DNA from: Candidatus Latescibacterota bacterium
GTDB taxonomy: Bacteria > Latescibacterota > UBA2968
Assembly: GCA_965198115.1 (NCBI GenBank)
Contig: OZ240241.1
Span: 4,096,001-4,160,000 of the forward strand
Direction: 5' to 3'
DNA length: 64,000 bases
Shown here: positions 1-3,800 of the stretch, in pieces
How positions within the stretch are numbered: the first letter of the stretch is position 1
Layout of the letters: each line of letters begins with the position of its first letter
Notes under the pieces: generated by a model
The model's database searches: none
The model's input: the letters and a program-made list of their open reading frames with translations, nothing else
What the model was told of the DNA's origin: nothing
Position numbers and translations under genes: made by a program

Positions 1-119
1 ACCTCGGCCGAGTAACGCTCGATACGGCCTACGACGACGCCCTGGCGGCACCCCTGCCGTCCGCGCTTGACCGTTTCGACTCAACCGGAGAACCAGCGGG
101 AAATGTCCCAAACGACTGA
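1..119 (+). CDS. 3' end of an unidentified CDS entering from the left edge (partial)
   Basis: Frame starting at nt 3 is open (LGRVTLDTAYDDALAAPLP...) to TGA 117-119 and overlaps the next start codon. Too short to identify. Confidence 0.3.
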   Translation, partial: LGRVTLDTAYDDALAAPLPSALDRFDSTGEPAGNVPND

Positions 120-474
120 CACTGCCAGGGCATCGATCGTCGATTTCGCAAAAGTCGCCGGTGTCGACTGCCCCTGCGGCATCGCGCGACGCGCGTTCGA
201 GGAAGCATCGGGTGGCGCCTTCACCCTCCATACGACCACCATCACGACCGAAGCCCAAACCCACTATCACAAGCAGCTGACAGAGGTCTACTACGTCCTC
301 GATGGCGAAGGCCAGATCGAGCTCGACGGAGAACGGCAACCCGTGCATCCTGGCGTGGGGATCCACATTCCACCCGGAATCCGGCACCGCGCGGTCGTCG
401 AAAAAGGCACCGAAATGACCGTTGCCATCTTTGTAACCCCTGCGTTCGATCCGTCGGACGAATGGTTCGACTGA
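103..474 (+). CDS. Cupin-domain protein (Cupin_2 / mannose-6-phosphate isomerase-like)
   Basis: Cupin motifs HYHKQLTEVYYVLDGEG and IPPGIRH; N-terminal CPCG. ATG at 103 preferred over TTG at 67. Confidence 0.85.
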   Translation: MSQTTDTARASIVDFAKVAGVDCPCGIARRAFEEASGGAFTLHTTTITTEAQTHYHKQLTEVYYVLDGEGQIELDGERQPVHPGVGIHIPPGIRHRAVVEKGTEMTVAIFVTPAFDPSDEWFD

Positions 475-487
475 CATCGGAGATTGA

Positions 488-988
488 ATGGACGGCGAAG
501 CGAAAAAGACAGCGTTGAGGATGATTCCCTACGGACTCTACGTCCTCACCTCCGAAAGCGAAGGCGAAATCGGTGCCGCCACCGTCAGTTGGGTCACCCA
601 GGCGAGCTTCGCGCCGCCCCTCCTCGTCGTCGGCGTTAAAGCGGATTCCGCCAGTCACGACATCATCAAAACGAGCGGAACCTTCGCGCTCAATATGCTC
701 GCTCAGGAACAGGACGCCATCGCATCCACGTTCATCAGAGAGACGCAGGTCGAGAACGGAGCGATCAGCGGGGAACCGTATCACAGCGGCTCGACAGGCG
801 TGCCCGTCCTGTCCAATGCCACGGCCGTCCTCGAATGCCGCCTCGTCGACACGGTAGAAAAGGGAGATCATTCCGTATTCGTCGGGGAGGTCGTCGACGC
901 CTCCGTATCGAATGAGCCCGATGGCCGTCCCGACGATTCAACGCTCAGAGTCAAACACCTCGGCGAAAAGGTATTTTACGGAGGCTAA
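488..988 (+). CDS. Flavin reductase family protein (FMN-binding split barrel)
   Basis: IPYGLYVLT, SWVTQASFAPP and GDHSVFVGEV motifs; GGAG RBS upstream. Confidence 0.9.
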   Translation: MDGEAKKTALRMIPYGLYVLTSESEGEIGAATVSWVTQASFAPPLLVVGVKADSASHDIIKTSGTFALNMLAQEQDAIASTFIRETQVENGAISGEPYHSGSTGVPVLSNATAVLECRLVDTVEKGDHSVFVGEVVDASVSNEPDGRPDDSTLRVKHLGEKVFYGG

Positions 989-1020
989 TGATTGAAGCCT
1001 ACCTCGCTTAGGCGTTTACC

Positions 1021-1057
1021 ACCGTCTACCGCCGACCGTCCACCGTCCACCGTCCAC
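1021..1057. repeat. Heptamer tandem array (ACCGTCC-like x5)
   Basis: ACCGTCT ACCGCCG ACCGTCC ACCGTCC ACCGTCC AC. Confidence 0.85.
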
Positions 1058-1072
1058 GAAATTTCTAGCCTA

Positions 1073-2128
1073 ATGATTGACGCAGACGTCCACAACGAGC
1101 TCCCCAAGCTCAAAACACTCCTCCCTTATCTGGGTGAGCAGTGGCAGGTTTACCTGAACGAATCGGCTTTTCGCGGAACCGGAGCGGCCGACTACCCCGA
1201 TAAATCCCCCGTCGCCTCACGGGAGGACGCACGACCCGATTCCGGACCACCCGGGTCCGACATCGACCTCCTTCGCAAACACGTCTTCGACGACGGGGGC
1301 GCCGACCTCGCCATTCTCAACTGCGGCTTCCGTGCGGGAAGCGTCCACAATCAAGATCTGGCGGCAGACCTTGCCACGGCCGTCAACGACTGGCAGGTGG
1401 AGCAGTGGCTGAACACCGACGACAGATTCCGGGCATCCATCATCGTCGCCAATCAGAATCCCGTTCGGGCTGCCGCCGAGATCGACCGAATCGGATCGCA
1501 CCCAGGATTCATCCAGGTCGTCTTGCCCGTCTGCGGCGATGCCCCCTACGGAAACCTGCGATACGATCCCGTTTTCGACGCAGCGACTCGCCACGACCTG
1601 GCTATTCTGATTGCCTTTGGAGGCGCATCAGGCTTTCCTCCAACTGGGATCGGTTGGCCATCGACCTACGTCGAGGAGTATGTCGATGCAGGGGCCACCT
1701 TCCAATCGCAGATAAACAGCCTTATCTTTGAAGGAGCCTTCGATCGGTTTCCGACGCTCCGGATCGTCCTCTCCGAAAGCGGGTGGACGTGGATGCCGTC
1801 GTTGATGTGGCGGATGGACAAGGAATGGAAGGGATTGAGGCGTGACACGCCGTGGGTCAAGCGCCCACCCAGCGACTATATGCGTGAACACATCCACCTC
1901 ACCACGGCCCCGACGGACCGACCGTCGGCCGAACGCTCCAACGAGCTGATCGAAATCATCGACTACCTGAATTCAGACAAGATGCTGCTCTTTGCCTCGG
2001 ACTATCCGCATTGGCACGGCGAAGAGCCTATGGCCTGGTTATCGGATTTACCGGAAGATCTGAAGGAACGCATCCTGCACCTCAACGCCGCCGAATTCTA
2101 CGGTTTGGAAGTCTCAGCCACAGCTTGA
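1073..2128 (+). CDS. Amidohydrolase-fold protein (Amidohydro_2), paralogue 1, with a partly degenerate metal site
   Basis: IDADVH, LSESGWTW and FASDYPHWH motifs. ATG at 1073 chosen because the longer ORF start runs through the heptamer repeat. Confidence 0.85.
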   Translation: MIDADVHNELPKLKTLLPYLGEQWQVYLNESAFRGTGAADYPDKSPVASREDARPDSGPPGSDIDLLRKHVFDDGGADLAILNCGFRAGSVHNQDLAADLATAVNDWQVEQWLNTDDRFRASIIVANQNPVRAAAEIDRIGSHPGFIQVVLPVCGDAPYGNLRYDPVFDAATRHDLAILIAFGGASGFPPTGIGWPSTYVEEYVDAGATFQSQINSLIFEGAFDRFPTLRIVLSESGWTWMPSLMWRMDKEWKGLRRDTPWVKRPPSDYMREHIHLTTAPTDRPSAERSNELIEIIDYLNSDKMLLFASDYPHWHGEEPMAWLSDLPEDLKERILHLNAAEFYGLEVSATA

Positions 2129-2169
2129 GACACCATCCTCGCGTCGAAAGGACCACCCAGGAGCCACCT

Positions 2170-3288
2170 ATGTCTACACTCGCGCCAGCGCCACCCCAAG
2201 TCCAGACTCAGATCCCGGATGCCGGATCCCGGATCACGGATCACGCACGCATCGACTGTGACATCCACAACGCCATCCAGTCCGATGACACGATTCGAAA
2301 GTATCTCGCCCCCCGATGGCGAAAGCATCACGAGATCTACGGCATCCGCAACTTCACGGGGTGCTATTACCCCCGCGCGGTGCCTAACGCGGCACGTCAC
2401 GATAGCTGGCCGCCATCGGGCCTGCCTCCGGGCGGCGATCTTGCTTTTATGCAAGAACAGCTGTTGGATGAGTGGGGTTTCGAATACGGGATTCTCAACT
2501 GCCTAACCGGTAGTGGGGGTGCACGCAACCTCGAGTTCAGCGCAGCTTTTGCCTCGGCCGTGAATGAGTGGCAGATCGCCGAATGGCTCGAACCCGAACC
2601 CAGACTCCGCGCCTCTCTGGTCCTGCCCTACGAGGTCGGGGACCTCGCTGCCGAAGAGATTCATCGAACAGGCGATCACCCGGGTTTCGTCCAGGTCATC
2701 TTCGCCGCCCGAACCAGCGAGCCGATGGGTCGGCGCAAGTACTGGCCCATCTACGAGGCGGCCTGCGAGCACAATCTCCCGATCGGCATCCATTTCGGCG
2801 GCGCCGGCGGCCACCCCATCACCGGAAGCGGCTGGCCGTCGCACTACATCGAAGACCACGGCGGAATGTCCCAGGCGTTCCAGCCGCAGATTACGAGCTT
2901 CGTGATGGAAGGTGTCTTCGAGCGGTTCCCTGAATTGAAGATCGTCCTGATCGAGGGAGGCTTTGCCTGGCTGCCACCGCTGATGTGGCGACTCGACAGA
3001 AGCTGGGAGCTGATGCGTAGCGAAGTCCCCGACGTCAAGCGCCCGCCTTCAGAGTATATTCGCGAACACTTTTGGACAACGACGCAGCCTGTCGAAGAGC
3101 CAGAGCGCCCAGAGCACTTCCATCAGCTCCTGCGTCAAATGGATATGTACGATCGTCTGATGTTCGCGACGGACTACCCTCATTGGGACTTTGACGCGCC
3201 CACGTCGGCCCTCCCGAACGACCTCGACGACGATCTTAGAAAAAGTATCCTCGCCGGCAACGCTAAAAAGCTCTACAGCCTGTCATAA
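2170..3288 (+). CDS. Amidohydrolase-fold protein (Amidohydro_2), paralogue 2, with an apparently complete metal-ligand set
   Basis: IDCDIH, IGIHFGG, LIEGGFAW and FATDYPHWD motifs; AGGAG RBS before ATG 2170. Confidence 0.88.
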   Translation: MSTLAPAPPQVQTQIPDAGSRITDHARIDCDIHNAIQSDDTIRKYLAPRWRKHHEIYGIRNFTGCYYPRAVPNAARHDSWPPSGLPPGGDLAFMQEQLLDEWGFEYGILNCLTGSGGARNLEFSAAFASAVNEWQIAEWLEPEPRLRASLVLPYEVGDLAAEEIHRTGDHPGFVQVIFAARTSEPMGRRKYWPIYEAACEHNLPIGIHFGGAGGHPITGSGWPSHYIEDHGGMSQAFQPQITSFVMEGVFERFPELKIVLIEGGFAWLPPLMWRLDRSWELMRSEVPDVKRPPSEYIREHFWTTTQPVEEPERPEHFHQLLRQMDMYDRLMFATDYPHWDFDAPTSALPNDLDDDLRKSILAGNAKKLYSLS

Positions 3289-3308
3289 CCAGTAAGGTGC
3301 GACCCGCG

Positions 3309-3332
3309 CCTGTCCTGAGCGCAGTCGAAGGG
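3309..3332. repeat. REP-like element, CCTGTCCTGAG...CGAAGGG family
   Basis: CCTGTCCTGAGCGCAGTCGAAGGG; related copies at 7207-7245 (reverse), 10894-10932 and 55331-55350. Confidence 0.75.
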
Positions 3333-3350
3333 TGTCGCACCGACCGCATT

Positions 3351-3800
3351 ATGCCCAAACACATCATCGGGACAGTGAGCGAAATCCCACCGGGCGAGCG
3401 CAAAATCGTCGACATCAGCGGCAGGTCGATCGGCGTCTACAACGTCGCGGGCGAGTTCTTCGCGGTGCGTAACCGGTGTCCCCACCAGGGCGGTCCCCTC
3501 TGCGAAGGTCGCACCGTCGGGTTTCTGAAGTGCGACAAACCCGGGGGTCCTTACGAGTATCTCCGCAAGGGCGAGATGCTACGCTGCCCGTGGCACGGAT
3601 GGGAATACGACATCAAGACCGGTCAATCGTGGGTCGATCCCGCGAGTGTACGGGTCCGAAGCTACAACGTCGGCGTCGAACCCATCGAAGAGGCCGACCT
3701 CGAAATCGACTCCGAAACCGGCTACGCCAAGGGTCCCTTCCTCGCAGAAACGTATCCCGTCAGCATCGAGAAGTTGAACGTCGTCATCGAACTTGCTTGA
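3351..3800 (+). CDS. Rieske [2Fe-2S] ferredoxin
   Basis: CPHQGG ... CPWHGW Rieske boxes; ATG at 3351. Confidence 0.92.
   Translation: MPKHIIGTVSEIPPGERKIVDISGRSIGVYNVAGEFFAVRNRCPHQGGPLCEGRTVGFLKCDKPGGPYEYLRKGEMLRCPWHGWEYDIKTGQSWVDPASVRVRSYNVGVEPIEEADLEIDSETGYAKGPFLAETYPVSIEKLNVVIELA

Follow-up and report, generated by a model that had tools for sequence, protein, structure and literature searches.

Amidohydrolase-related dinuclear oxygenases (AROs) are a young family of C-H hydroxylases, with about 17,000 members predicted and 1,315 of them Mn-dependent (PMC13154177), and AibH1H2 is the only heteromeric one that we found characterized (PMC13154177, PMC7782822). It forms an alpha2-alpha'2 complex and belongs to the AibH1H2-AibG-AibF system of Rhodococcus wratislaviensis, a 2-aminoisobutyrate monooxygenase that yields alpha-methyl-D-serine with AibG as Rieske ferredoxin and AibF as FMN/[2Fe-2S] ferredoxin reductase (PDB 6M1W, 6M2I, 8FUL-8FUO; PMC7782822, PMC10401708); other described AROs are SfbO with its low-potential relatives D3EI84, W7L2Y2 and B6JH23 (PDB 8SM6-8SM9; PMC10811679, PMC13154177), and the high-potential diiron enzymes PtmU3 and DitZ. 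An ARO is defined as a PF04909 TIM-barrel protein with a D-x-H motif followed, at least ~200 residues later, by D-x-P-H-x-D/E (PMC13154177), and Mn-dependent, low-potential members by a hydrophobic residue at gamma1, a hydrophilic one at gamma2 and an aromatic one at gamma4 (PMC13154177, Table 1); an aromatic position, gamma5, has been proposed as the Rieske docking site (PMC13154177). The family, its motif, its Rieske linkage (90% of 555 homologues) and its misannotation as amidohydrolases are already in print (PMC7782822, PMC10401708, PMC10811679, PMC13154177). Here we analyse a 64,000-nucleotide stretch (the window) from the genome of a Candidatus Latescibacterota bacterium, at whose start two paralogous amidohydrolase-fold genes, A and B, stand beside a Rieske gene. 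We propose, at a probability of roughly 80%, that the three products form a monooxygenase of the AibH1H2/AibG type, in which B would be a Mn/Fe-dependent, O2-activating C-H hydroxylase of a small, probably anionic metabolite and A its non-catalytic partner. An earlier reading of the same DNA (the original prediction) had presented this system as a hidden one, a description that the published record overtakes.

The window corresponds to C1:4096001-4160000 of the source genome (G000), a single contig of 8.4 Mb with 59% G+C. The run of cupin, flavin reductase, A, B and Rieske genes that had been described as co-oriented and tightly spaced was recovered as five plus-strand open reading frames (ORFs), separated in order by 13, 84, 41 and 62 nt:

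103..474, plus strand: cupin, 123 aa, Cupin_2 (Pfam)
488..988, plus strand: flavin reductase, 166 aa, PF01613 split-barrel
1073..2128, plus strand: A, AibH1-type subunit, likely non-catalytic, 351 aa, PF04909; an alternative start at TTG 992 is possible
1613..1615, plus strand: GCC codon for Ala181 of A, aligned with the AibH1 Site 0 ligand His201
2170..3288, plus strand: B, AibH2-type ARO subunit, predicted catalytic, 372 aa, PF04909
3351..3800, plus strand: Rieske [2Fe-2S] ferredoxin, AibG-like, 149 aa, PF00355, with C43-x-H45 and C79-x2-H82

Over 346 residues A and B share 41% identity, and a search of NCBIfam returned no family for either. Their order with the Rieske gene is that of the Rhodococcus H1-H2-Rieske genes, and it recurs across several phyla, which argues that the arrangement is not due to chance.

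A sequence search of the PDB with B placed AibH2 at the top (E 1.7e-102), followed by 8SM7, 8SM9, SfbO, AibH1 and 8SM8 (E 1e-84 to 1e-51) and then by DitZ (1.1e-13), PtmU3 (3.4e-13), LigW (6.5e-10) and ACMSD (2e-9); the match of B to PF04909 has an E-value of 9.9e-47. When the predicted fold of B (AlphaFold2; predicted local distance difference test, pLDDT, 87) was submitted to Foldseek, AibH2 chains came first, with a template modelling (TM) score of 0.87 and 44% identity, and decarboxylases reached TM 0.65-0.70 at ~20% identity. B contains the motifs D31-I-H33, IGIH208FGG, LIE262GG and D335YPH338WD340, and alignment to AibH2 finds in it all seven cofactor residues: D31, H33, H208, E262, D335 and H338 stand for the AibH2 metal ligands Asp25, His27, His211, Glu265, Asp337 and His340 (PMC7782822), and D340 for the second-sphere residue Asp342 (PMC10401708). 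Every sequence feature of an ARO is therefore present in B (fold, D-x-H, D-x-P-H-x-D/E and the remaining ligands H208 and E262), as is the three-residue signature of the Mn-dependent type, with Ile32 at gamma1, Asn110 at gamma2 (mapped by our own alignment to the Thr that ends beta2 in SfbO) and Trp339 at gamma4. The gamma5 residue, Phe341, is aromatic. In fold, motifs, gamma1, gamma2, gamma4, aromatic gamma5 and adjacent Rieske gene, B resembles SfbO and the low-potential AROs. PtmU3 and DitZ are likewise TIM-barrel dimetal oxygenases with DxH and DxPHxD/E, but they are distant, have a hydrophilic gamma1 and usually lack a Rieske partner, a pattern opposite to that of B. In quick IQ-TREE searches (101 rows, then 100 without one fused ORF), in which proteins of a Microbacterium locus, L086, took the place of the real AibH1 and AibH2 sequences, B fell in a 44-row group (support 99) with the AibH2 stand-in (E 2.6e-139). 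On the basis of E-values, ligand set and clade, we file B in the ARO family, its assignment as an AibH2-type member with a predicted catalytic role being supported by these comparisons; by analogy with published homologues, it would hold a redox-active Mn/Fe dinuclear cofactor and carry out O2 chemistry.

A single search does not place A, since several AROs of the PDB scored about equally against it (E 1e-75 to 1e-66; decarboxylases 8e-16 at best). It keeps D5, H7, E235, D310, H313 and K250 and lacks the beta5 His (Ala181, in ILIA181FGG) and the terminal Asp (His315, in D310YPH313WH315), its C-terminal DYPHWH paralleling the DYPHKH of AibH1. All of the motifs quoted in the original prediction are present, but its implication that DxH and the Glu are confined to B was mistaken, which leaves two asymmetric positions between the paralogues, with Ala181 in place of a His and His315 in place of the terminal Asp. 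It is by loss of the terminal Asp that mononuclear AibH1 has been reported to differ from dinuclear AibH2. With neither a complete D-x-P-H-x-D/E nor the beta5 His, A is not filed as a catalytic ARO. In the 100-protein tree, proteins without the terminal Asp lay on one side of a branch (one change, SH-aLRT 91), and that side includes A and the A protein of L086, a close stand-in for AibH1 (E 6e-177 to AibH1). Ligand sets and tree agree in making A a likely non-catalytic, AibH1-type subunit beside a putatively catalytic, AibH2-type B, which is the division of labour originally predicted.

The Site 0 ligands of AibH1 are Asp24, His26, His201, Glu255 and Asp328 (PMC7782822), and the counterpart of His201 is the Ala181 of A. 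To set this change in context, we aligned 195 full-length homologues from the fetched loci and tallied 192, two copies of window genes and the fused ORF having been dropped. The terminal Asp is present in 121, all of which keep the beta5 His. The other 71, the A-type proteins, all retain both N-terminal ligands, the Glu and the C-terminal Asp and His; the beta5 His is kept in 55 of them and replaced in 16 (Gln 5, Asn 5, Ala 2, Ser 2, Tyr 2). Judged from this alignment, the family-wide mark of a non-catalytic subunit is the absent terminal Asp, and because most A-type proteins keep the beta5 His, its replacement by Ala is not what makes A non-catalytic. Among the loci seen, Ala at this position is limited to the window's genus (G000, G001 and three close metagenome contigs), and two genomes of a sister genus, G007 and G010, keep the His. 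AibH1 Site 0 variants have been reported as insoluble, with E267A, alone or with D36N, D340G and other positions, listed in the supplement; we saw none at the beta5 His among them, so the natural Ala of A does not contradict that result. Since the counterparts of Glu267, Asp36 and Asp340 are invariant in all 71 A-type proteins and the beta5 residue varies in 16, the beta5 His looks like a dispensable ligand of H1-type subunits. A itself is under purifying selection relative to its orthologue in G001 (non-synonymous divergence, dN, 0.12; synonymous divergence, dS, ~1.4; rough values, as dS is near saturation).

The linkage of A, B and Rieske was surveyed at 79 loci from other genomes found with B (the best 80 of 604 candidates), which by record title belong to Poribacteria, Latescibacterota, Chloroflexota, Acidobacteriota, Gemmatimonadota, Actinomycetota and Alphaproteobacteria and are not independent of one another. 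A is adjacent to B in 61 of the 79, and a Rieske gene lies within 2.7 kb in 61 of the 79, so that the linkage is conserved, which supports the proposed membership of the Rieske protein in the A-B system. The Rieske protein of the window is 48% identical to that of the AibH1H2-like cluster in L086. Among G000 and 40 relatives, 40 of the 41 genomes have a B homologue. In one genus (g4) the cassette has come apart: all 15 genomes examined carry an intact A-type gene on its own, at a distance from B, which mostly keeps a Rieske gene; in three of these (G004, G020, G022) the lone gene is the only A-type gene found. This split, which counts as one event, indicates that A is kept even without B as a neighbour. 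The orphan AibH1-type loci of this genus are L226-L239 and L123.

A model of the A:B complex received a score of 0.93, and the highest of three controls one of 0.01; the threshold for such scores is reached by 116 of 157 solved pairs and by 2 of 215 mismatched pairs. Model runs agree in at least 97% of contacts, with a partner pLDDT of at least 92. In solved AibH1H2, Asp342 of AibH2 contacts Lys282 of AibH1, and Phe341 of AibH2 contacts Tyr287 of AibH1 (PMC12141560). The predicted interface overlaps the solved one and includes B339-340 and A250/A255, the counterparts of these residues by our own alignment count. Like AibH1, A combines absence of the terminal Asp with the interface Lys (A250), which is kept in 68 of 71 A-type proteins; unlike AibH1, it lacks the stacking Tyr, replaced by Leu255, as well as the Site 0 His. 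Of the three outcomes named in the original prediction as refuting it (clustering with mononuclear decarboxylases or hydrolases, an unconserved Rieske linkage, no A:B complex), none was observed, the complex being a modelled one.

Other arrangements of these genes were seen in the survey. At L110:5933-8107 an A-type and a B-type gene read as one 724-aa ORF, which is either a natural fusion or an assembly slip; in a relative, L106, the two genes overlap by 4 nt, a spacing one base different. Stacked cassettes occur in L067 (five ARO and three Rieske genes) and in L116/L040 (A-B-A-B-Rieske). In one Chloroflexia locus a fragment of an Nramp (MntH-like) gene lies directly upstream of the A gene (L103:5429-5911), which fits Mn use and was seen once.

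In the mechanism that we propose, NAD(P)H would reduce a flavoprotein reductase and this in turn the Rieske [2Fe-2S] cluster. By analogy with published homologues, the Rieske protein would then dock on B at Phe341 and reduce its Mn/Fe site, O2 would bind, and one oxygen atom would enter a C-H bond of the substrate as the other left as water. A would pack against the B loop that carries Trp339 and Asp340 and would hold at most one structural metal, for which four of the five AibH1 ligands are present here. The reductase is most likely encoded elsewhere in the genome. The sole PF00175 gene of G000 (C1:1464127-1465056; L140:1009-1941) encodes a stand-alone FNR-like flavoprotein without a Pfam Fer2 match. 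This gene was found in 4 of the 41 genomes, the ones that have the syntenic cluster (G000, G001, G007 and G010), and G002, where the gene was not found, also lacks the oxygenase and this Rieske type; the gene's own neighbourhood gave no link to the cluster. The FNR-like protein is the best candidate donor, as a lead only, and the adjacent PF01613 protein a weaker one. Within the literature that our search covered, most subscription papers being outside it, we found no flavin-reductase donor for AROs.

The substrate may be approached through the pocket. SfbO binds sulfate with Asn67, Arg232, Arg235 and Trp341 among others (PMC10811679); in our alignment B has Arg69, His230, Met233 and Trp339 at these positions, where AibH2 carries Gln, His, His and Phe. 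Among 121 B-type proteins, 111 have Arg or Lys at position 69. We tentatively suggest, at somewhat below even odds, a small anion that is neither 2-aminoisobutyrate (AIB) nor the sulfonate of SfbO. Every family returned by clustering of neighbours over 96 loci is one with great expansion in these genomes, and the literature searched, with the same limit as above, yielded nothing on the substrate of this ARO subgroup. The PhyH family is one case of very large expansion: G000 has at least 152 matches to these 2-oxoglutarate dioxygenases, 150 of 341 candidates having been scored.

What the sequences show directly is the order of the genes, the ligand sets, the nearest solved relatives, the clades, the linkage counts and the failure to find an AibF-type gene. 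One rival view makes A and B mononuclear amidohydrolase-2 enzymes of the ordinary sort, either decarboxylases of the ACMSD/LigW type or hydrolases, with the Rieske gene a bystander. PF04909 is the only label that A and B carry, ACMSD, LigW and the gamma-resorcylate decarboxylases share both it and the fold, and the reduced ligand set of A is compatible with one metal. Those enzymes are, however, non-redox, mononuclear and without the ARO motifs, DxH and DxPHxD being reported as absent from characterized decarboxylases and hydrolases (PMC13154177), and their E-values are more than 40 orders of magnitude poorer than those of AROs, which are closest to both A and B; with a Rieske gene near in 61 of 79 loci as well, this view is scarcely credible. 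A quite improbable alternative is that B forms a homo-oligomer that works with the Rieske protein, as in SfbO, with A either a decaying paralogue or a protein of separate function. SfbO-type AROs are homotetramers without an AibH1-type partner, solo B-type genes with a Rieske gene and without A are common in relatives (family f2, SfbO type), A has lost a metal ligand, and the A:B score, having no homodimer comparison, does not show that the heteromer is preferred. Yet the A-type proteins, the AibH1 proxy among them, belong to a single old group, the Rhodococcus enzyme needs AibH1 to be active (PMC7782822), A is under purifying selection and stays intact when parted from B in 15 of 15 g4 genomes, and 68 of 71 A-type proteins keep the Lys that contacts the catalytic Asp. 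The solo loci, this limit on the A:B score and the Ala181 that leaves A with four of five Site 0 ligands nonetheless weigh against the A-B-Rieske monooxygenase that we favour, and so do several further points. Eighteen of the 79 loci were scored without an adjacent A; the A:B model, which speaks for the complex that the original prediction had expected, is a prediction that may reflect memory of solved AibH1H2; and the case made from the pocket is built on an alignment to a single structure with bound ligand. A tblastn search of G000 (E 1e-3), with the L086 AibF-like protein as query, found no AibF-type gene, and PF14759 had no match there, so the electron chain is incomplete in cis. Finally, the FNR-like candidacy draws on four related genomes and one informative negative, and the gene was not found in the remaining 37 of the 41 genomes, the majority of them with AROs.

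The adjacent PF01613 flavin reductase, named in the original prediction as perhaps the electron supplier, could be the cognate donor in this genus, passing electrons from NAD(P)H through reduced flavin to the Rieske protein in place of AibF, a proposal compatible with the oxygenase reading and different from it in the donor only. Its gene is co-oriented with A at a distance of 84 nt (21 nt in G001), is kept in G001 and three close metagenome loci, adjoining the oxygenase nowhere else, and is under purifying selection (dN 0.15, dS ~1.6). The closest solved relatives are 1WGB/1YOA (E 8e-32), TTHA0420 being described as a flavin reductase with a ping-pong mechanism that is believed to proceed in single-electron steps, and G000 offers no AibF-type or PF14759 reductase in its stead. 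Against this, none of the 79 survey loci has a homologue (E 1e-5) and none of 118 flanking ORFs matches PF01613 (E 1e-8). In metagenomes, among the closest 80 of 306 confirmed homologue loci (50 of the 80 with at least 600 nt downstream), 77 are without an ARO gene and the three that have one are close kin, 77-83% identical. The syntenic clusters of the sister genus also lack the reductase (RmlD-A-B, with neither cupin nor reductase, in G007; RmlD-cupin-A at one contig end and B-Rieske at another in G010), as do the two other ARO-Rieske loci of G000. The link to the oxygenase is not conserved and the protein is accessory or unrelated; a role as donor is unlikely. It is very improbable that the cluster is a true AIB hydroxylase, orthologous to AibH1H2G. 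AibH2 is the closest solved relative of B at 44% identity, and the H1-H2-G gene order is identical, but none of aibD1, aibE, aibC, aibT, aibA and aibF lies beside the cluster, whose flanks hold TauD, RmlD-like, cupin and mnmA genes, and the serine hydroxymethyltransferase (SHMT) matches of G000 are more than 1.6 Mb away. The pocket differs from that of AibH2 (Gln to Arg69, His236 to Met233), much closer Aib-like clusters exist (L086), and B is far from the L086 proxy in the tree. By its gene content the locus lies outside the Aib pathway and, because AibF is missing, outside the full AibH1H2GF system, the PF01613 reductase and a cupin standing upstream instead. Rather unlikely, too, is a combination of these departures, namely a rewired heteromeric ARO in this genus that has no AibF, draws on a recruited split-barrel flavin reductase, has an AibH1-type subunit without one Site 0 ligand and perhaps without metal, and acts on a new class of small anionic substrate; if true, it would offer a natural experiment on the function of AibH1 and its metal.

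Directly upstream of the five genes lie same-strand TauD and RmlD-like genes, so that the co-oriented run begins before the window, the RmlD-like gene overlapping the cupin gene; 3' of the Rieske gene come a second cupin gene and then mnmA. The upstream cupin had been listed first in the gene order of the original prediction. It precedes A in G000, G001 and G010, is missing there in G007 and is unlinked in G009; beside the oxygenase it is thus seen only in the window's genus and one sister genus, and it is not a conserved component. ATG 1073 of A has no clear ribosome site, and the in-frame TTG 992 is preceded by GGAGG; A may begin at the latter, which would give a 27-residue extension. An 11-bp direct repeat occurs at window positions 985 and 1070 (within the region 985-1080), and the spacer between its copies holds short CCGTCCA-like repeats that recur in the genome.

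Three further ARO-type genes were located in G000. On the minus strand at C1:804505-805960 (L003:8506-9961) is a close SfbO homologue (E 1.9e-177 to 8SM6) with a Rieske gene; the sulfate-binding Asn and pair of Arg are retained in it, and the next gene, immediately after, encodes a TrxB-like pyridine nucleotide-disulphide oxidoreductase (C1:803313-804242), a possible lead on the SfbO reductase or native context. At C1:5361546-5362961 (L002:9547-10962) lies a third ARO, which is solo, has the motif DYPHWD and is accompanied by a Rieske gene; next come a thiamine pyrophosphate (TPP)-enzyme gene and insertion sequence (IS) elements. The last, on the minus strand at C1:7431361-7431980 (L004:5362-5981), is a broken ARO-like gene in two frames that matches in its N-terminal half only and has no adjoining Rieske gene. 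Outside this genome, the Microbacterium locus L086:5708-11126 combines close AibH1/AibH2 homologues with a Rieske gene, an AibF-type reductase, the only one among the 79 surveyed loci, and an aldehyde dehydrogenase-like gene; upstream, an acyl-CoA ligase-like gene takes the place of the aib genes, possibly reflecting another substrate.

The locus does not extend the ARO concept. It is, rather, a usable test case for two questions left by the published work: what the H1 subunit and its Site 0 metal contribute, and what serves as donor at the many ARO-Rieske loci without AibF. For the organisms themselves it corrects an annotation, in that genes labelled as amidohydrolases point to O2-dependent small-molecule catabolism in poorly cultured bacteria.

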